Shown piece after piece: positions 48,022 through 64,000 of a DNA stretch of 64,000 nt (position 1 is its first letter; every line of letters begins with the position of its first letter). The stretch comes from a virus (Duplodnaviria > Caudoviricetes): IMG/VR virus record IMGVR_UViG_3300011008_000028; one strand, given 5' to 3'. Position numbers and translations under genes: made by a program. The notes beneath the pieces are model-generated. The model worked only from the letters and a program-made list of their open reading frames with translations. It did not search any database and was not told the origin of the DNA.

Positions 48022-48198
48022 TTAATAGTCGGAGAAGATCGCCAGGGATATTCCCTCGAGTGCAGAAATGTTGTAACGAATCTTTCCGCTGCTTCTGTTT
48101 ATGATCATATTCAGCGGTGAGAATCCACGGAACATTTCCCACAGTTCTTCCATCTCCAAACCTAACGTGTTCAACACGTCCCCGTCGAAATCTGCATT
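48022..48198 (-). CDS. beta'-N exon 6 (catalytic NADFDGD)
   Basis: AAT GCA GAT TTC GAC GGG GAC directly after the intron terminal G at 48199; absent from the ORF track. Confidence 0.9.
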   Translation of the reverse strand, partial: NADFDGDVLNTLGLEMEELWEMFRGFSPLNMIINRSSGKIRYNISALEGISLAIFSDY

Positions 48199-51100
48199 CG
48201 TTTGTCTACCAAACTTTATAACTCATGTGGACTATATCTTCACATCAAACGATATGTCTGCCGTTTCCATTTAAGGGAGCTCATCCCCACCTTATTAAGG
48301 CCGTACTCTCTTTTGAGATAGTCTCTGAACACATATCCCTGTGGGATACTTCGCTGCGTCGATTAGCCAACTCTATTTATTTTTTACCATACCTTGAGAT
48401 ATTACCTCTTGCCATCATCTCTATTACTAGGATGATTTGGTATAAATAGATATTCCAGCTTTCCCGCAATTAGGCAGATATTTGTTAACCCGGGGCTCAA
48501 TGCATGAGCTTGACTTAAAGTCCCGGGAGTATCGCTGAAGGAATCGATAACGTGTAGTCACTTGAATCAGGTTTGACTTTACGTATCGTCATATCCAGGA
48601 TACTACCAAATGTAATTGTCAATTATCTTCCACCGTGTTCGCAACACACGGTGCGTTCTCTTATGAACTGCACTGTATCTCTACAGTAGTTGAGACTATA
48701 TCTTCTTAGACATGCACTTCCCATTATGATACCCTATTCCGTTGAGGTATCGACCGCTTGGTGGTACTCTACTAGGTCTATCTCTAGACTGGTTCGATAG
48801 TCGTTGAAGCGTCATCTATAGTATTTGCACCGAAGTCTCGATATGTACTTTCGGTGAGACTTAGTATCCGATATGCTAAGTCTGTATATGATTTCATCAG
48901 AATCAATAATACCTTGATCAAATAGATCATATATCTGGTCAGAGAGTTTGTACAGTTTACACGGTTCCAACCCAGGTATGTTATACTGATTGGATATTCG
49001 TCTCCATGTCCTTCCAAGTCGAATATCTTTAACGGCGTTATACGATACATGATATTGTCTAACGATGTCCATTGTGGTATATCCATTGGACAGAGCATTG
49101 CATATATCATGCACCGTATCAGGAGCCAATACTCTGGTTGTCTCAGATATCGTATACTCGGAAGAAACCTGTTTCCACTCTCCACGGTATTTGATCCCGA
49201 TGATGAATGATGCTGATAGGTGTGTTTGTTTTTCAATCGATTTGATACTCATTCCAGATGCTAGCAGCTCGCATACAAGTCGGGCTTGTTCTTCAGTATG
49301 TGTAGCATATGAACAAGCAGACCCTGTCTTGATCAATCCTGTACGGATTGCGTGATCTAGGTTCTCCTTCATTGTAACCCACTCCAGATTCCGATACCAT
49401 GCCAGGTTATGGTTACCATTGATATGGTTTACCTGGGGTTTGAACTCTGGATTTGGTATGAAGTACTTTGCAACCAGACGATGAATATCAAGTATCTTCC
49501 CGCAAATATACACATATGGATAGCCATGGTCTCTGGCCGGCTGAATCGGTATTGTCTGTATATGGCCTTTGATTCTGACTGTACCCACATTGGATATTTC
49601 ATATCCAGTAGGTGTTCCGAATACAATTTCTTTCCACTCTGGATTATTTAAGTCTCGTATGTAATCATTCAACAGTTGGATTTCTCCTATCTGTAATTCT
49701 ACCTCTGGTTTGTTGAATAATTCCATACTTCTTGTATCTCTATTATCTTGGAGCATCTGGGTTATTACATCCAGTGCCGACATATGATTTCATGAATTCC
49801 TTTCTATATGTATTTCGGATTTGATTACTATAGATGCTTGCCTGCGGATTGACTGTATACATGATGATTTTACCATCCCTAATCCGTTATGATTAGTGCT
49901 ACATAATACATTGCTGTACTACTGCGGTTATCATGTCTTGGCCAGTCTTCCCCGACAATTCACATGTTTTTACAATCCCCCAAAGTTAAGGATTCCTATT
50001 GAGTATAATGTGCGGAGAATCCTCTTCTATAACTCTCTGCATTACAGAATACACATAGGGATCATAGTTGAACTTTGATGCCAGATAGTTTGATGCCTTG
50101 GTTATTGTCCAACCCTTATCCTTTATGATTCTGCGTAATATATGACCCTTATACTGATCAATGAAAGCCTTGTATGGAACATCGACTTCATCAATATGCA
50201 GTGTAGGATCCAGGACGATTACAGATCGTCCTGAATAATTCCATTCACCACCAAGGACGCTTGAACGCACTGCGCCGTGCTTCCCATCGATGAGTTGGAA
50301 GTTGATAGACCAAAGTTCGTTAGCCCTCATCTGTGCCTGATACAGATAGAGAGGAACCTCGATCGGTGTTGCTCTTTTCAAGTTGATTGAAATATTCACC
50401 AACGGATGAATCTGTTTGTCCCAATTATCTTCATAATAGTTCGCAATACTATTATCGTCTTCATACACCCATTTGAAGACTGCTGCACCTCTCGGTACAT
50501 GTTGTGACTATATCTTCATGAGTAATCTGTTACCAATTACTACATGCTCCCCATTTCCGCTTTAGATACAGGCCATTCCACTGCCTGTATGAACCCGTTT
50601 GCTTGGCCCGTACTCTACTGACACTATGTATGGTATTTCTCCAATACTAGTGTTGGTCGATAGTCGATGAAGGTTATACTTTATTGAATACCATTTTCTT
50701 TCTTATAATTTCTTCTTATTAGACAAATCAATGCTTTATCAGACTCATTGAGAGGGTCCATTCCAACTTGTTTCGCTATTTCCTTTGAGGTTTGATTTAT
50801 ATCAACACCATTATCGAATGCTCGCTTGACCATTTCTGTTATACTTCGAGGCGGAAGATATATAGATTTCGTTAATCCAGGTATATCATATTGATCGGAA
50901 ATCTTTCTATAACATCTTCCTTTTGCAATTGCTCTAACCATAGATCGTGTCATTCGATCGTCTTCAATTGTATTTGCAATATCCGCATATCCTTCTCCTT
51001 CCTGGAGACGTTTGCATATACCATGAATCATTTCATCAGGAAAACGTTCTCTCTTTTCCGGCCAAGGGATATTATACTCTTTAGAAATATACATCCATGC

Positions 51101-54100
51101 GTCCCTATGTAAGATATTGGCGCAGAGGTGATAATCAAGATTATATTCCTTGGATATCTTTTGAAATGGCATACCCTCTTCAAGTTTCCGACATATGAAC
51201 CGGACAACATCCTCTGTATATTTTGAAAGAGAATTCTTTTCACCAAGAGGTCGTAGATGCGTGTCATAACTATGATGGATATTCTCCTTCATTGTAACCC
51301 ACTCCAGATTCCGATACCAATTATGATGTTTGATTCCATCAATATGATTCACCTGTGGTTTATTTTCAGGATTAGGAATAAATGCTTCCGCCACTGCTCT
51401 GTGAATACGAACTGTTCGGAAATTTTTCTTGCCGCCTAATGACATCACAAACGATGGATACCCCCGCGTACCTTTATTATTTTTATTATAGGTGCCACTA
51501 GTAATATTTCCGGTCTTCGTATTACGCAATAACCCGGTATTTGAAATCTCATATGTGGTCTGTAAACCATCAACAAATATGGGTTTCCATTTAGGAAATA
51601 GAGTATCTTCAGTTAATTCATTGATTGTTTGGATATCTCTAATGTCCAATTGGATGAAAGGTTTCCCAAAATATTCAATGGAAAGAGCATCCCTGCGACT
51701 TTCAAAATCAACTGAAATTTTGTCTAATAATTTATCAGATATTTCCATAGTATTCCTCCTGAATCGTCTCAGGAAGTAAAGTATATTTCCATGCCTGTGA
51801 TTATCCCTACCTATCAGGCTTTTACAATCCCTGGGTCGTTATACCCAGTGCTACATACAATGTCACCACTGTACTGCTGTGCTGATAGTATATCAGGAAC
51901 TTCCGGCAATTAAAGGAGTTTTACTTCACCCGAGATCTAATTTATTATAGTTGATAATTTTTATTTTATATACAACTTGATTAGATCTAATCAAAATGAA
52001 CTGAAGAAGAAGTTCTCCGTATTGATTGCCATAGGCCTTAACGCAGTTGAATAAACAGGGAGTACTGAGGTCCAAACAAGATCCTTGTCTCTGATAAGGG
52101 AATCAATGAGATCTGCTTTCTGTTTCCGTTTCCCCTTATAATACTCCATGATTTCTTCAAAATTTTGGTAGAAAGCATTTACCATATGTTCACAACGAGT
52201 CGCAAGTTCGTTGCCGTTCTCTTATGAACCGCTCTATGTCTCCATAGATGTGCAGACTATATCTTCCCAATATACCTATTACCGAGTATACTAGGTCTCT
52301 CGTTTCCACTTACGGTATACACCATTCCACTGTGTATACGACCCCATATGCAATTGGGCTGTACTCTACTGACAGGACACGGGGTGTTTCTCCACTGTGT
52401 CCTGATGGTCGATAGTCGTTGAAGCTGATAGTAATTCAAATGTTATATTGATTTGATATTGCCATATAAACGTGCTTGTACTTGATATTAGATACGGTTG
52501 AATAGTCAACTCCGGTTTTCTTAGATATATCTACCATCGAGTATTCTTTGGATTCTAATAATTTGCACACTTGGTGAATGATTTCATCAGAATATTTGGC
52601 AATTGATCTATGATGGCATCTATCAGGTATTGGAATATTATACCCGGACGAAATCTCTGTCCATATTCGTTTTCCTTTAATCCCTGCTACCAAGGATTTG
52701 CTTGTTCCTGTTTGTTTGGCAATTTCATCAAGTTTCAATTTGTTTTCTTCTAATAATTTACATACTTGATGGACCTGTTCATTAGAATATATTGATCCGG
52801 CTCGCAGTTCACCGTTTCCAACAGGCTTAATATTATATTGTGATGAAATCTCTTTCCAGTTCTTTCTGCATTTTATTACAGATACCAATCCTTTTGGTAC
52901 TCCTAGAAGATTTGCAATTTCTTTCTGTTTTAGAATATCTTCTTCCAATAATTTGCAGATTTTATGAATTACTTCTGGATCGTATACATGATAAGATCCA
53001 CAAGTAGCATCAAGAGATTCTCGTAATCCTGTGCGGATTGCGTGATCAATATTTTCCTGATTGGTACACCATTCAAGATTGGAAACATTATTATTCAATT
53101 TATTCCCATCTTTATGATTGATTTCAGGTTTCCCATCTGGATTCGGGATAAAGGCTTCTGCTACTAGACGATGAACTTTTCGATTGAAACGTTTCCCGTC
53201 TATATAGATTCCAACCTGAGGATACTCATCTGTATCCAAGCATGGTTGTAATAGAATGTTATGTACCAAACTCCGTATCATACCGTTTTCACTTACATAA
53301 TACTTAGTTGCCCGATTATCAATATACACAGTTCGCCAATCCATTGATAACAATTTCTCATCTAGATCACTTAATTTGATTCTTTTATTCCGTTTCTTAC
53401 CCAGATATATCACATCCTTTCGTATGATATGAATTACTATCTTGCCTGCGGGTTTACTTTAGTCATATGATTTTACCATCCCTGGCCCGTTATAGCCAGT
53501 GCTACCACCTGTGTCACCACGGTGTGCGGTTATATGAATCATTCAAGTACTTTCCGCAATTATGAGAGAAAGGGCAAAACTTTACCCTATGTTATGATAC
53601 ATTAGCATAGACTTCTTAACTTCGATCTGATCATTGTGTTTACGTATTTGGCCATTAGCGGTAATTATATTTTCATTTGAGATTATATTTTCGAGAACTT
53701 TTCTGGAGAGAGCACTTTGCATGCGCTGATAAAACAACAATATCTTCAGTATGATTCGCAACATCATACCCGCTTTATTCAAGCTGCACTGTATCTCTAC
53801 AGTAGTTGAGACTATATCTTACCATATACACTGTTACCATGTATACAGTCCTCTCGTTTCGCATTACTCGGGGCACTTCCAATGCTACCCGCCTCCCTTG
53901 AGGGCTACTCTACTGTCTAACCCAGGGTATTTTCTCCAGCTGGGTGAAGATGGTCGATAGTCGTTGAACTTTTAATTATTACATGCTAATTTTAAAATTT
54001 CTTTCTGCTCGGCTAAATTCATGGATTCAAATTCTATTAAACTGATAAATGCATCCAGTGGCATTAATGTATCATTGGTAATATTATGAACGATAGTATC

Positions 54101-55668
54101 AGGAGTTAATTTATCATTTAGAGCATTGATAACATAAGCTCTCAGTCCATCCGTCTGATAAGGACGTTTAGAATCATTAAATGCAATGAATTCACTCATT
54201 GATACAATTTCTCCCGACGTCCCATATTTCATTTTGGAACTCTTATATTTGTTCCCATCATGAATTGATCCATCAATGTCTACCAGAATTTCACCAGTTT
54301 GAAGATAAATTCGAAAATCCCAATTATACATAAATGATACCATTGAAGAATGTACTATTGGATTGAATGGGAATAATGTGTCAAAATCTGGATGTTTGAA
54401 AACATTTGAACTTTGACGATCATATGAAATCTTTAAGATATTAAGAATCCTTGCAAATTCAAGTTCAGTTGGCGGCATATAATCATTTTCATTAGTGATT
54501 GATTTTTGATGACCAATTGCTCTATTTATGTCCCATATCAATCGCTCTTCGGGAGTCATATGATTCCACCATTTTATGATACCTTCTGATACATGTGATT
54601 TCCATTCAGATCGTTCTTCATCTGACATATTCATATGCCAGCGTTTGGTATTTCTGGAACGAACTATTGATGCTTTGGTACGTTCATAATCACTCATATT
54701 CGCCCATCTACGTTTACCTGCCTCGGATTCTTTGTGCTTCATCCTAGTTATTTCTTCAATTGTTGCATTTGAACGCCATTCTTTTAATATTTTAGCCGAG
54801 CGTTGAGCCCTTAATTCTGCAACATTTGCAGGAATTGTTTCCCAATAATGTGTCATATTCGTACGACTAATTTCTGCATGTTGCTGTTGCTCTTCCGGAG
54901 TTTTCACAGCCCATCGGTTCTTTCCATTTTCAGCAATAGCTTGTGAAAGCTCATGTATATCATTGCTTTTCAGACCGGAAATATTTTGTAAACTTTGTAG
55001 AGCTTTCCTCCTCTTTTGTTCTGGACTCATATTCTTATTTGCATTCTTCAGTTTACACTTTCTACAAATTTGAATATAGCCATCTTTATGATGACGGATT
55101 GACCCATATGTCATCGAATATGATTTACCACACTGGATGCATATAAAATGCATCAGTTTAGCATCTTTTTCTTTACGATGAATATTCCCTAATTCACTAC
55201 TCATATTACCACCTCCTTCCTCAATTAATAATCTGCATGTAATAAATGTTAGCTGCGGATTAGCCAATCCAGGGCGTTGTTACGATCCGTACGGCGTTAT
55301 CCGTACTGCTGCCAGGCATGTCACCATACCTGCGCCGTGTCCCTGGCTCTTTTGTAAGGTTCGAAATTAATCCACCCAGTGTATTCAATGTCAACGTCCT
55401 TGTACTCAATCTTAGTACCACATTCCGGGCACACTTCCCCTTCAAAGGCCGCACCGATGTATTTACCACATTTGCAGCGATATCTTTCCAGGAAAGCATT
55501 CGTATCCGACATTATAGTACCATATCGAGGTGAACGAGGGCCGTCCATGTTACGGATAGTCTTATCCACATCAGAGAACGGGCCTTCACTGATTAAGAAG
55601 CCTCTTCCATTGATACAGTCGTATGCGCACTCACTTTCGAAATTGATTCTCGAGAAGTTTATCCTCAT
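48022..55668 (-). CDS. non-virion RNA polymerase beta' N-terminal subunit (phiKZ gp55/AR9-like), 6 exons: 55668-~55351, 53737-53584, 52181-51995, 50421-49989, 48619-48518, 48198-48022
   Basis: joined exons give ~456 aa: CKCG..CPECG..GWI / LFYQ..HNIG-L-NAFY / LPVYSTALRP / GKHGAVRSSVLGG..NYSGRSVI..LNRNP / TITFGSI..ILPGL / NADFDGD; exons 2-6 join in frame at U|..G| junctions (exon 3/4 junction +/-1 nt). Confidence 0.9.
48199..48517 (-). ncRNA. group I intron 5, no ORF (319 nt)
   Basis: P AAUUGCGGGAA, Q GACGCAGC, R UUCAGAGACUA, S AAGAUAUAGUC; separates ..PGL| from |NADFDGD. Confidence 0.9.
48518..48619 (-). CDS. beta'-N exon 5 (34 aa)
   Basis: TITFGSILDMTIRKVKPDSSDYTLSIPSAILPGL links NRNP to NADFDGD. 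Confidence 0.88.
48620..49988 (-). mobile_element. group I intron 4 with HNH homing endonuclease
   Basis: P1 AAUCCU/GGGAUU, Q AAUCCGCAGG, R UUCAACGACUA, S AAGAUAUAGUC. Confidence 0.9.
48812..49783 (-). CDS. HNH homing endonuclease (NUMOD4/I-HmuI-like) with HTH repeats
   Basis: YEISNVG, IHRLVAKYFIPNP..QVNHINGN..NLEWVT.KEN..HA. Confidence 0.9.
   Translation of the reverse strand: MSALDVITQMLQDNRDTRSMELFNKPEVELQIGEIQLLNDYIRDLNNPEWKEIVFGTPTGYEISNVGTVRIKGHIQTIPIQPARDHGYPYVYICGKILDIHRLVAKYFIPNPEFKPQVNHINGNHNLAWYRNLEWVTMKENLDHAIRTGLIKTGSACSYATHTEEQARLVCELLASGMSIKSIEKQTHLSASFIIGIKYRGEWKQVSSEYTISETTRVLAPDTVHDICNALSNGYTTMDIVRQYHVSYNAVKDIRLGRTWRRISNQYNIPGLEPCKLYKLSDQIYDLFDQGIIDSDEIIYRLSISDTKSHRKYISRLRCKYYR
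49989..50421 (-). CDS. beta'-N exon 4
   Basis: DKQIHPLV..GKHGAVRSSVLGGEWNYSGRSVIV..LNRNP. Confidence 0.9.
50422..51994 (-). mobile_element. group I intron 3 with HNH homing endonuclease
   Basis: P AAUUGCCGGAA, R UUCAUCGACUA, S AAGAUAUAGUC; 3' end GAAGAUAAUUG as in intron 4. Confidence 0.88.
50681..51748 (-). CDS. HNH homing endonuclease
   Basis: YEISNTG, IHRAVAEAFIPNP..QVNHIDG.K..N..NLEWVT. Confidence 0.9.
   Translation of the reverse strand: MEISDKLLDKISVDFESRRDALSIEYFGKPFIQLDIRDIQTINELTEDTLFPKWKPIFVDGLQTTYEISNTGLLRNTKTGNITSGTYNKNNKGTRGYPSFVMSLGGKKNFRTVRIHRAVAEAFIPNPENKPQVNHIDGIKHHNWYRNLEWVTMKENIHHSYDTHLRPLGEKNSLSKYTEDVVRFICRKLEEGMPFQKISKEYNLDYHLCANILHRDAWMYISKEYNIPWPEKRERFPDEMIHGICKRLQEGEGYADIANTIEDDRMTRSMVRAIAKGRCYRKISDQYDIPGLTKSIYLPPRSITEMVKRAFDNGVDINQTSKEIAKQVGMDPLNESDKALICLIRRNYKKENGIQ
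51995..52181 (-). CDS. beta'-N exon 3
   Basis: NAFYQNFEEIMEYY..LPVYSTALRP. Confidence 0.85.
52182..53583 (-). mobile_element. group I intron 2 with HNH homing endonuclease
   Basis: P1 AGGGU/GCCCU, P3 UCUCUC/GAGAGA, P AAUUGCGGAAA, Q ACCCGCAGG, R and S motifs. Confidence 0.9.
52436..53413 (-). CDS. HNH homing endonuclease with three C-terminal HTH repeats
   Basis: VHRLVAEAFIPNP..EINHKDGNKLNN.VSNLEW; 3x IH..CKLLE..IA..G..IK..W..IS..YNI. Confidence 0.9.
   Translation of the reverse strand: MIYLGKKRNKRIKLSDLDEKLLSMDWRTVYIDNRATKYYVSENGMIRSLVHNILLQPCLDTDEYPQVGIYIDGKRFNRKVHRLVAEAFIPNPDGKPEINHKDGNKLNNNVSNLEWCTNQENIDHAIRTGLRESLDATCGSYHVYDPEVIHKICKLLEEDILKQKEIANLLGVPKGLVSVIKCRKNWKEISSQYNIKPVGNGELRAGSIYSNEQVHQVCKLLEENKLKLDEIAKQTGTSKSLVAGIKGKRIWTEISSGYNIPIPDRCHHRSIAKYSDEIIHQVCKLLESKEYSMVDISKKTGVDYSTVSNIKYKHVYMAISNQYNI
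53584..53737 (-). CDS. beta'-N exon 2
   Basis: LFYQRMQSALSRKVLENIIS..YHNIG, following GAAGAUAUUG|. Confidence 0.82.
53738..55350 (-). mobile_element. group I intron 1 (apparently 5'-truncated) with Vsr/EDxHD-like endonuclease
   Basis: P5abc-like arm, Q AAUCCGCAGC, R, S and P9 present; no P1/P3/P element between exon 1 and P5. Confidence 0.8.
53972..55204 (-). CDS. intron-encoded Vsr-like (EDxHD) homing endonuclease with Zn finger and Trp-helical repeats
   Basis: CIQC..CRKC; repeated W.nM..EE units; PTELEF..NWDF..LVDIDGSIH; ATG 55204 after AAGGAGG. Confidence 0.75.
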   Translation of the reverse strand: MSSELGNIHRKEKDAKLMHFICIQCGKSYSMTYGSIRHHKDGYIQICRKCKLKNANKNMSPEQKRRKALQSLQNISGLKSNDIHELSQAIAENGKNRWAVKTPEEQQQHAEISRTNMTHYWETIPANVAELRAQRSAKILKEWRSNATIEEITRMKHKESEAGKRRWANMSDYERTKASIVRSRNTKRWHMNMSDEERSEWKSHVSEGIIKWWNHMTPEERLIWDINRAIGHQKSITNENDYMPPTELEFARILNILKISYDRQSSNVFKHPDFDTLFPFNPIVHSSMVSFMYNWDFRIYLQTGEILVDIDGSIHDGNKYKSSKMKYGTSGEIVSMSEFIAFNDSKRPYQTDGLRAYVINALNDKLTPDTIVHNITNDTLMPLDAFISLIEFESMNLAEQKEILKLACNN

Positions 55669-55709
55669 GCCGTTTCCTCCTTTTGATTTCAAAAATTGAT
55701 TTTGATGAT

Positions 55710-61412: not shown

Positions 61413-62357
61413 CTATTCAGTCAGCATGTCTTCGAGTGTAATTGATTCGTTAGACAGAATCAAGAAATTCAGAACCTGACTCATCAATTCCCGTTTGTTT
61501 ATAGATATTTCCTGGCCCAACAGTCCTTGTTCCTCATATATAACGAAACGGTATTTCGAATTGACGAATGTGATTAAGAATTTCTTTATTATGTCTTCAT
61601 TCATGTCAACGACGGTGGAATAGTATTTATCCACCAGAGCGTTGTATTCCGGATCATCTTTCAGATACTTTGTATCCTTTACATACAGCTTCTCACCTAC
61701 AGGTGTTTCTTCGATGTTTGCTGTAAGAAGCAACGGTAAAGTTGAATCCAGTAACATGTCCTTGGTGATGCCCATTCTGCGCATAATATCATTGCGCATG
61801 ATCAGAAGCATTCTGTACCAGTCATAGTTACGGAGCAACTTAAACTCCTGGGATGATCCTGTATAGTTGAAGAAGTAGATCTCGATCAGTTGTTCTTGAA
61901 GAGCATTGGGTTTCATATTACGTCTGTAATATTCAATCTCTTCTTGAGAGATCTCATTCTTATATGGCTCAAAGAGCCTGTCAACCAGTTGATGTATATC
62001 TCGTGTACATGTGAACACATGCTCCTCATTAACTTTCATTTTGGAAGCCCTGTAACGATCATTCTTTGAATTTCCGTCATTGTCGACAACGGGGTTCGTC
62101 TCCACAAGATTACGTCTGAAGACCTGGATAATGAAAATGGATATATGTGTATTGATGATGGAGGCAAGGAAGCTAAGAACCCTTTCGTTTGGCTGGTTCT
62201 TATTGTGATTCCATGTACGAGGAAGTGAAAACTTAATTAAGTTATCTACTATGAGATTCTTTGACATTAACTGGCTGATTATTGTAGATTTATCTTTGCC
62301 TTCTATCTCCTGCTGCTCAAAGATCGATCTGTTGAATGAGTATGATGAATTGCTAAA
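61413..62357 (-). CDS. 3' exon of the sigma-like promoter-specificity subunit of nvRNAP (AR9 gp226 / phiKZ gp68-like)
   Basis: frame stays open 30 codons upstream of the tracked ATG to the intron terminal G near 62359; RVLSFLASII, DNDGNSKNDR, PNALQEQLIEIYF and LMSQVLNFLIL resemble gp226 blocks as recalled (not searched). Confidence 0.65.
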   Translation of the reverse strand, partial: FSNSSYSFNRSIFEQQEIEGKDKSTIISQLMSKNLIVDNLIKFSLPRTWNHNKNQPNERVLSFLASIINTHISIFIIQVFRRNLVETNPVVDNDGNSKNDRYRASKMKVNEEHVFTCTRDIHQLVDRLFEPYKNEISQEEIEYYRRNMKPNALQEQLIEIYFFNYTGSSQEFKLLRNYDWYRMLLIMRNDIMRRMGITKDMLLDSTLPLLLTANIEETPVGEKLYVKDTKYLKDDPEYNALVDKYYSTVVDMNEDIIKKFLITFVNSKYRFVIYEEQGLLGQEISINKRELMSQVLNFLILSNESITLEDMLTE

Positions 62358-62358
62358 T

Positions 62359-64000
62359 CTTAACTCTATCTTTCAATAGATGATGTGACTATATCTTCGT
62401 AAGGGCGGCTATTACCACCACCCTCCGTCTCTCGTTTCGGTACTAGGCATACACCTTTCCCTACTCTACTAGCAATTACTGAGGTATTTCTCCATCAGTA
62501 TTGGTTTTCGATAGTCGATGAACGCTTAACTATTATAAGGAATTACATCAAGCTTATTTAGTATTTCCTGATGCTCTGCCGAAAGTCTCGTCAATATTGA
62601 TTTAAATTCTCCGAACGTATATCGAGTATCAGTTCCTATTTCACTTACAATACATGAATCGTCTAATACGTCGTTGGGGCATGCTATTACATATGATTCG
62701 AGTCCATCAGTAGTATACTCTCTCTGAGAATCTACGAACCTAATCTTGTCGCCAATAGATCCATTTGTATAATGAATACTCCCATCGATATCGATAAGCA
62801 TAGTTCGATTATATATAATAACATAGAAATCCCAGTTGTGATATGGACTGATATGAATAGAACCCGTAAATGGATTGATAGGAAATTTCTTATCAAACAT
62901 TTCATGCTTCCTGGTATTGAAATAATGGACCCTATACTGAATTTTCAGAGATGACAGGAAATCTGAAAATAATCTTTCCGTATCGGAATCAAATGGTGAT
63001 AAATCCATAGAAGAATTCGATTCGATGGCTGCATTATAACAGAAATCTTCAAATTGTTCTCTACTTAAATTTGCCCACCATTGTTTTTTCTTATCAGCAA
63101 TTGATTGCAATTGACTATCATCGAGCGATCGCCAATAATTTTTCCGATATGCTGAAATAATTTCAGACATTGTCTTCAGTTCATCTTCGTTCAATGATGC
63201 CCACCATCGTTTTACTCGTTCAGATCGTTCCATAGATATGCGTCTAAGTTCGTCTAATGATAGACTTCGCCAATATCGTTGCGATGCCTCACGAAGTTTT
63301 TTAGCTCTAGCTTCCCGTTGCTCTAACGTCAAATTCTTCATGAATTTATTTTGTGCATCTGACATCTTTTGAGACATCTCTTGTCGTCCTAACTCATCTA
63401 GATTATCCCAGAAAGCCTGAATATTATTCCGACATTGATTTGCATATCTATCCAATTCTTCTTTAGATTTGTTAGCCCAGGTTGCTTGAGTTTTTGCTCG
63501 AGTTTTGGCTTTTTCTTCTTCTGAGTGAGATTTTCGCGTCGTGGCCACTTTTTCATATGATTCCTGCATCACTCTGGCATTGTCTGCCATAAGATCGTCA
63601 TAAACTTTTTGGCGAAATTCTGTAGCATGTTTGAGACTTTGATCAGTCGGATTCTTGTCTGAATATCTACAGTCATCACATTTAAATTGCTTATTTTTGC
63701 GAAATTTTGAAATGAATGTAGTATACCTCACCGTGTATATCTTATTACAGATATCACAACATGTACTAACGGGTCGAGCTGCTCGTTCGGCATAAAAACT
63801 TTTGTCTAGCATATCACCGTGCCCTCCTTTCATGAATATACATATGTAGAAGATAAAGTATATTCTATTACAGAAAGGAGTTTTGTTTCTTTATAATAGT
63901 TAATTAGCTGCGTATGATTGCCCAATCCTAACTGATTTTACCATCCCTGGACCGTTATATCCAGTGCTGCACTATCTGTCACCAGTAGCCGCGGTTAGTT
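62359..64000 (-). mobile_element. group I intron 6 (5' end outside the window) with Vsr/EDxHD-like endonuclease
   Basis: P5abc-like GCACUGG..AUAACG..CCAGGGAUGGUAAAA, Q ACGCAGC, R UUCAUCGACUA, S AAGAUAUAGUC. Confidence 0.85.
62526..63812 (-). CDS. intron-encoded Vsr-like homing endonuclease, paralog of 53972..55204
   Basis: CDIC..CDDC, W..L..EL repeats, DTERLF..HNWDF..IDIDGSIH..DSQR.Y.TDGL..YVI. Confidence 0.75.
   Translation of the reverse strand: MLDKSFYAERAARPVSTCCDICNKIYTVRYTTFISKFRKNKQFKCDDCRYSDKNPTDQSLKHATEFRQKVYDDLMADNARVMQESYEKVATTRKSHSEEEKAKTRAKTQATWANKSKEELDRYANQCRNNIQAFWDNLDELGRQEMSQKMSDAQNKFMKNLTLEQREARAKKLREASQRYWRSLSLDELRRISMERSERVKRWWASLNEDELKTMSEIISAYRKNYWRSLDDSQLQSIADKKKQWWANLSREQFEDFCYNAAIESNSSMDLSPFDSDTERLFSDFLSSLKIQYRVHYFNTRKHEMFDKKFPINPFTGSIHISPYHNWDFYVIIYNRTMLIDIDGSIHYTNGSIGDKIRFVDSQREYTTDGLESYVIACPNDVLDDSCIVSEIGTDTRYTFGEFKSILTRLSAEHQEILNKLDVIPYNS

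Follow-up and report, generated by a model that had tools for sequence, protein, structure and literature searches.

A probable non-virion RNA polymerase subunit gene of a jumbo phage, divided by five group I introns

The stretch of DNA analyzed here, referred to as the window, comprises 64,000 nucleotides (nt) of the IMG/VR virus record IMGVR_UViG_3300011008_000028 (Duplodnaviria; Caudoviricetes). Between positions 55668 and 48022 its minus strand carries what is very probably the gene for the beta-prime N-terminal subunit of a jumbo-phage non-virion RNA polymerase (nvRNAP), colonized by five mobile group I introns. In the window copy the gene is distributed over six minus-strand exons of 318, 154, 187, 433, 102 and 177 nt, sizes that had been proposed in an initial annotation of this DNA and that were matched to six sets of coordinates. 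The coding sequence amounts to ~1.38 kb once 12 nt missing from the window are added, which brings exon 1 to 330 nt. Two other contigs were used to define the gene: L004, a related-phage contig with an uninterrupted open reading frame (ORF) of 460 amino acids (aa), served as the ruler for exon boundaries, and L017, a 147 kb contig from the ENA, supplied the 12 nt. The features of the locus are as follows (bp, base pairs).

55351..55668, minus strand: exon 1, 318 nt; the final 12 nt (encoding LINP) are missing by comparison with L017; 83% protein identity to L004.
53738..55350, minus strand: intron 1, truncated at the 5' end and starting at J4/5; P5 with an extension, Q, P6 (11 bp across 1248 nt), R, S and terminal G are present.
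53972..55204, minus strand: ORF of intron 1, 410 aa; predicted zinc ribbon, ~8 STPR-like helical repeats and C-terminal PD-(D/E)XK (Vsr/EDxHD-like) domain.
53584..53737, minus strand: exon 2, 154 nt; G is the last base of the intron before it, and the exon-terminal U pairs with the guide sequence.
52182..53583, minus strand: intron 2; HNH/NUMOD4 ORF at 52436-53413; R at 52423-52413, S at 52265-52255; P6 of 12 bp across 991 nt.
51995..52181, minus strand: exon 3, 187 nt; P1 of 6 bp with U.G.
50422..51994, minus strand: intron 3; HNH/NUMOD4 ORF at 50681-51748; R at 50671-50661, S at 50516-50506; P6 of 9 bp across 1093 nt.
49989..50421, minus strand: exon 4, 433 nt; last residues NRNP; Pfam RNA_pol_Rpb1_2, PHROG 2987.
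48620..49988, minus strand: intron 4; HNH/NUMOD4 ORF at 48812-49783; R at 48808-48798, S at 48704-48694; P1 of 6 bp with U.G; P6 of 11 bp across 1002 nt.
48518..48619, minus strand: exon 5, 102 nt, 34 codons.
48199..48517, minus strand: intron 5, 319 nt, without an ORF; RF00028 match of 60.3 bits (E 8e-13).
48022..48198, minus strand: exon 6, 177 nt including the stop codon; first residues NADFDGD.

All long ORFs of the region from 46 to 58 kb lie on the minus strand. The pieces at 55321-55692, 51991-52185 and 49986-50468, together with two short open stretches, resemble the beta-prime N-terminal subunits of jumbo phages, as judged by Pfam RNA_pol_Rpb1_2, PHROG 2987 and tblastn matches to AR9, PBS1 and Listeria phage LPJP1. 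When the protein of the intron-less relative was used as query, the best annotated matches were AR9 gp270 ('non-virion RNAP subunit'), PhiPA3 054 and, from Staphylococcus jumbo phages, the 'non-virion' beta-prime, and the beta-prime-N query found a single matching place per genome. Since there is one match per genome and it is annotated as non-virion, the gene was assigned to the nvRNAP lineage, in agreement with the identity first proposed for it. The catalytic motif NADFDGD, which opens exon 6, is located toward the C-terminal end of the protein.

Joining of the six exons, with the 12 nt of L017 included, yields a protein of 460 aa in which 354/460 residues (77%) are identical to the uninterrupted ORF of L004, with zero gaps; the exons of relatives in IMG/VR show 63-83% identity. 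A continuous alignment of the joined protein to homologues had been expected by the initial annotation. Such an alignment is obtained against L004, but only with the end of exon 1 taken from L017, and the junction originally drawn between exons 1 and 2 has to be abandoned, as discussed below. Inteins were considered as the interrupting elements and rejected: stop codons and frame changes separate the exons, and the endonuclease ORFs are free-standing.

The interruptions have the anatomy of group I introns. Five pairs of R and S motifs are located on the minus strand within the gene, always in the order R then S, and a sixth pair occurs at 62522-62387 when the whole window is considered. The window contains six exact copies of the S 11-mer, whereas chance would give 0.08, and none of 100 shuffled sequences attained six. 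The terminal G is found in 5/5 introns. For introns 2-5 the upstream exon terminates in U and pairs with a guide sequence over 5-10 bp, the pair at the splice site being U.G, and both the reading frame and the protein length are kept when measured against L004. Intron 5 additionally has a P10 of 5 bp with exon 6, adjoining a 10-position P1 (read by eye) that contains one mismatch and a U.G pair. The sequence of P3 varies among the introns while its pairing is maintained, and a P4 pairing was found in each of them, except that its 5' strand is missing from the window copy of intron 1. The DNA sequence shows both this anatomy and how the exons are restored. The spacing from R to S is 94 nt in intron 4 versus ~148 nt in introns 1-3, and in intron 4 (48620-48800), as in the similar intron of contig L005, only ~5 nt separate the presumed 3' strand of P3 from S.

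In the four ORF-bearing introns the P6 helix joins the segment that follows Q to the segment that precedes R, and the endonuclease ORF is placed in its loop. These helices consist of 9-12 perfect Watson-Crick pairs, have a different sequence in each intron and close 991-1248 nt; the observed P6 lengths were attained in 0, 1, 3 and 34 of 2000 shuffles. The initial annotation had described R and S motifs, now located exactly as it stated, insertions at NRNP|T and GL|NADFDGD, which are both borne out, and four endonuclease ORFs of two families lying between Q and R in the P6 loop, an arrangement supported by the bridging helices. Its count of five group I introns likewise agrees with the R/S, P3, P4 and P6 cores and the terminal G, the 5' strands of P3 and P4 of intron 1 being provided by L017.

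The ORFs of introns 2-4 encode I-HmuI-like HNH/NUMOD4 proteins with tandem helix-turn-helix (HTH) modules, which share 33-38% identity among themselves and 33-44% with AR9 gp271. The ORF at 52436-53413 matches HNH_3 with 45.2 bits (cut-off 24.8) and PHROG 59 with an E value of 2e-59. The ORF at 50681-51748 matches NUMOD4 with 24.2 bits (cut-off 23.4), its HNH_3 score of 23.7 bits being slightly below the cut-off, and the ORF at 48812-49783 is below the Pfam threshold while showing 34-38% identity to the other two and 33% to AR9 gp271.

Several observations weigh against the assignment of all five interruptions to functional group I introns. The Rfam model RF00028, for which the gathering score is 50 and which does not handle P6 inserts of ~1 kb, scored only intron 5 above that value (60.3 bits); the ORF-bearing introns 3 and 4 remained below it with 26 and 28 bits, respectively, each matching in the 3' half alone, and no match was obtained for introns 1 and 2. 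The Infernal/Rfam check that had been suggested initially is therefore passed by intron 5 and not by introns 1-4. At the gathering threshold just 1 intron was found by Rfam across 8 related loci. No obvious P8 hairpin was detected between the 3' strand of P3 and S in intron 4 or in the similar L005 intron (L005:9064-9276), and the window version of intron 1 is unable to form P1, P3 or P4. The low Rfam scores of introns 1-4 would suit an explanation in which the intervening sequences have decayed or are insertions that do not splice, leaving a fragmented gene or a pseudogene. This is very improbable, considering that the exons can be joined across U|...G| boundaries without loss of frame and are gaplessly collinear with an intron-less homologue, that neither exon 5 nor exon 6 possesses its own start codon or ribosome-binding site, and that the long-range P6, P3 and P1 pairings are kept despite a different sequence in each intron. 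In addition, the HNH motifs are intact, and relatives as well as an independent assembly show the same architecture.

The defect of intron 1 could be traced to a missing segment. In the window this intron passes from the exon codons PYK directly to J4/5, without three elements that all other introns here and in relatives possess: the guide sequence, the 5' strand of P3 and the AATTGCGGG-type P4 strand. L017 is 100% identical to window positions 58151-50972 save for 53 extra nt at 55351|55350, and is identical as well over 53283-45312, so that the whole of 58151-45312 is identical apart from these 53 nt; the identity over 53283-45312 provides independent confirmation of introns 2-5 and exons 2-6. 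Of the 53 nt, the first 12 encode LINP and have U as their last base, and the remaining 41 supply the guide sequence along with the P3 and P4 5' strands. Intron 1 of L017 has a P1 of 5 bp with U.G, a P10 of 4 bp with exon 2 and a canonical 5' end. The motif (I/V/L)INP is kept at junction 1 in 5/5 related loci examined and in Listeria phage LPJP1, and in L019, a more distant relative, this site (INP|L) is occupied by an intact intron whose ORF is 48% identical to that of intron 1. The protein of the intron-1 ORF recurs unaltered on other contigs. The boundary drawn between exons 1 and 2 in the initial annotation (PYK|LFYQ) is not a splice site: the base before it is A, and its use would remove the conserved INP and leave an intron without guide sequence or 5' strands of P3 and P4. 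The missing 53 nt were sought elsewhere in the window and are absent from it, and a search for a P4 5' strand upstream in exon 1, or for alternative splice sites for the window junction 1, gave none that reconciles U at -1 and G at the end of the intron with both the reading frame and INP.

The absence of the 53 nt is probably an artefact of contig joining during assembly at a repeated intron core. This explanation is favored because the start of L018, a JGI contig of the same phage, coincides exactly with the right edge of the gap; it is also backed by the lack of microhomology at the gap flanks, where none was found, and by a 16-nt repeat included in the missing piece and also present in intron 2. 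A real deletion variant is a possible, less favored origin of the gap. L018 also differs from the window and the ENA contig in exon 3, where it is without 36 nt (12 codons) at L018:3271|3272, corresponding to window 52079-52044, a further small indel between assemblies that agree fully elsewhere.

If the loss were real, intron 1 would be unspliceable, and the gene would be either dead or expressed as two polypeptides, namely a 117-aa zinc-finger read-through fragment and a product initiated at an in-frame ATG ATG in the 3' tail of the intron. Such an outcome agrees with the window sequence taken as it stands, devoid of guide sequence and of P3 and P4 5' strands, and the 36-nt in-frame loss in exon 3 of L018 could reflect real heterogeneity of the population. 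The ATG ATG precedes exon 2 by 13 codons, and the frame between them is free of stops, but it falls within a conserved hairpin of the P9 region and, unlike the gene's own start, is not preceded by an AGGAGG-like ribosome-binding site. RNAP subunits of jumbo phages are naturally split, which also suits this outcome; however, a split at this place would remove the INP kept in the five related loci and LPJP1. As the sister contig L017 is 100% identical elsewhere and the breakpoint coincides with the end of a contig, an unspliceable intron 1 is considered rather unlikely, and the assembly artefact is retained as the preferred explanation of the gap.

Comparison of the window with 8 related phage contigs revealed ~9 insertion sites in the 460-aa frame, after residues 110, 161, 218, 224, 288, 368, 401, 402 and 406. 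The window fills 5 of them, and the NRNP|T site is occupied in the window alone. Alleles include an intron-less form, forms with one to at least three introns and the five-intron form of the window, and the intron-less L004 and the three-intron L006 belong to one common metagenome. Introns 1 and 4 are both inserted after the hexamer AAUCCU and share an identical 37-nt 3' stretch (53784-53820 and 48668-48704, minus strand) that spans S and the P9 hairpin; because of this common hexamer and sequence identity, recombination, exchange or ectopic spread between sites of one gene is suggested. In three relatives 1.3-2.8 kb intervenes between ILPG and DGD (L006:10529-13365, L008:10343-11673 and L016:4543-7239). 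L006 contains there two introns flanking a micro-exon of 13 nt, which encodes LNAD plus one base, and the 5' site of the second intron follows the first base of the Phe codon and has a good P1 of 7 bp. For the introns in the Phe codon of NADFDGD in L006, L008 and L016, no G-terminal 3' site that restores the motif was found, the sole G-terminal option yielding NADYGD.

Other genes of the window encode an RNAP beta piece, topoisomerase II, an NAD-dependent ligase and an SbcC-like protein, the gene content expected for a jumbo phage. A megablast search of the locus against the INPHARED phage collection found no close phage. The sixth R/S pair of the window belongs to a further group I intron (61413-64000, minus strand; R at 62522-62512, S at 62397-62387), the 5' part of which is beyond the end of the window. 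It carries an ORF of 435 aa (62526-63833, minus strand) that is a paralogue of the 410-aa ORF of intron 1 (26% identity, E 1e-38), and the 284-aa ORF found downstream would be its 3' exon.

The ORF of intron 1 represents a protein family distinct from the HNH endonucleases of introns 2-4. Metagenomic homologues number 53, and no match was found in Pfam, PHROG, INPHARED or PDB sequences; a scan of IMG/VR by peptide pattern found nothing, Foldseek gave no match at E <= 0.001, and an Atlas feature search returned DUF559 at a score of 0.90, a weak lead. Structure prediction with AlphaFold from 31 sequences (pLDDT 88) gave a zinc ribbon, ~8 helical repeats and a C-terminal alpha/beta domain. The repeats follow the pattern W-x-N-x-S-x-E-E with a period of ~22 aa and resemble the STPR DNA-binding repeat (E 7e-5 with the profile of PDB 5d23; Pfam STPRs in 2 members of the family). 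The modeled C-terminal domain has a PD-(D/E)XK fold, aligning to I-Bth0305I (3r3p) over 94/97 residues with a Z score of 6.9 and a root-mean-square deviation of 3.6 Å; Hjc resolvases are tied at 6.9 and Vsr scores 5.8. Invariant positions of the family are E247, D296, D309, D311 and H315, with D344 almost invariant, and the invariant E, D and H together with the nearly invariant D follow the order of the EDxHD motif (PMC3239194). On the basis of this model, membership in the EDxHD family is plausible, and the combination of zinc ribbon, STPR-like repeats and Vsr-like nuclease could possibly constitute a new homing-endonuclease architecture with DNA binding based on repeats. The likeness to I-Bth0305I (EDxHD, PDB 3R3P) extends to its being encoded in a phage group I intron, with its Vsr-like domain aligning to the C-terminus of the intron-1 ORF. 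It differs in having NUMOD2/HTH and a P5 location, whereas the intron-1 ORF has a zinc ribbon and STPR-like repeats, is located in P6 and shows no sequence match to it.

Among the closest known systems is that of Bacillus phage AR9, whose gp270 (nvRNAP beta-prime N-terminus) is orthologous to the protein described here (~31% identity) and is itself a two-piece join around the HNH gene gp271. This gene encodes an HNH protein with NUMOD4 in a group I intron, like the three HNH ORFs of the window. However, AR9 has one intron, in the region of the catalytic Asp motif, inside DYDGD and a few codons past the last insertion site of the family, and none of the five introns of the window is exactly at that position. 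Another likeness is PhiPA3 gp210, an intron endonuclease in the virion RNAP beta gene that mediates interference competition with PhiKZ (PMC11620839); it too is an HNH protein in a group I intron of a jumbo-phage RNAP gene, adjoining conserved catalytic residues. In that case the intron is single, the gene is virion RNAP beta, and the competitive effect was demonstrated, while here it is hypothesized. Thus, among the precedents invoked in the initial annotation, that of an nvRNAP gene with a group I intron is found in AR9, but that of competition concerns a virion RNAP gene and not an nvRNAP gene.

Genes with several group I introns have been described in other phages. In cultured phages up to three per gene are known, in orf142 of Staphylococcus phage Twort and in the DNA polymerase of Bastillevirinae (PMC11878797), compared with five here and in another host gene. 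Uncultured gut or rumen phages provide a further likeness, their essential genes being cut by multiple group I introns accompanied by endonuclease genes. The capsid gene of the crAss-like Zeta group is divided into five fragments, with three intervening segments bearing group I intron signatures, and up to 14 introns occur per genome (PMC7886860); in the Jug jumbo phages of the gut the mean is 18.5 introns per genome, with RNA support for 37/76 predicted introns (PMC12880540). The published targets in these phages are capsid, terminase, ribonucleotide reductase and DNA polymerase genes, whereas here a multisubunit RNAP is affected, with one interruption more than in the five-fragment capsid gene. 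The density of introns, initially described as extreme, was therefore overstated in view of these three reports. Five introns in 1.38 kb of coding sequence are at the top of the described range, yet the arrangement is of a known kind, since both phage genes containing three or four introns and intron-rich gut phages have already been published; it is dense, not unprecedented.

Regarding mechanism, self-splicing and homing are expected of these introns from their membership in the group I family. Each transcribed intron would fold as a ribozyme whose guide sequence base-pairs with the last bases of the preceding exon, with U.G at the splice site; the intron would then excise itself and the exons would be ligated, giving an mRNA that encodes the 460-aa protein. 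The homing endonucleases would cut or nick the intron-less alleles of co-infecting relatives, and the intron would be copied in. By analogy with the single PhiPA3 gp210, the RNAP genes of this rumen jumbo-phage clade might, speculatively, serve as an arena of intron warfare, in which the four endonucleases of one 1.4-kb gene would jointly act as an interference weapon against intron-less relatives, one of them having a previously undescribed architecture that may read DNA by means of STPR-like repeats. The one fact behind this hypothesis of an 'anti-competitor nuclease array' is the coexistence of intron-less and intron-bearing alleles in one metagenome.

The locus has implications for annotation as well as for phage biology. 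Gene callers overlook the catalytic exons of the polymerase, and RNAP genes of metagenomic jumbo phages will therefore be mis-annotated unless introns are modeled; caution is also needed because repeated intron cores produce small assembly losses that can be mistaken for biology. The family of the intron-1 ORF, for which Pfam and PHROG have no model, is a candidate for a new homing-endonuclease architecture. The clade as a whole constitutes a natural series for the study of intron homing, the choice of insertion sites and, possibly, competition between phages.

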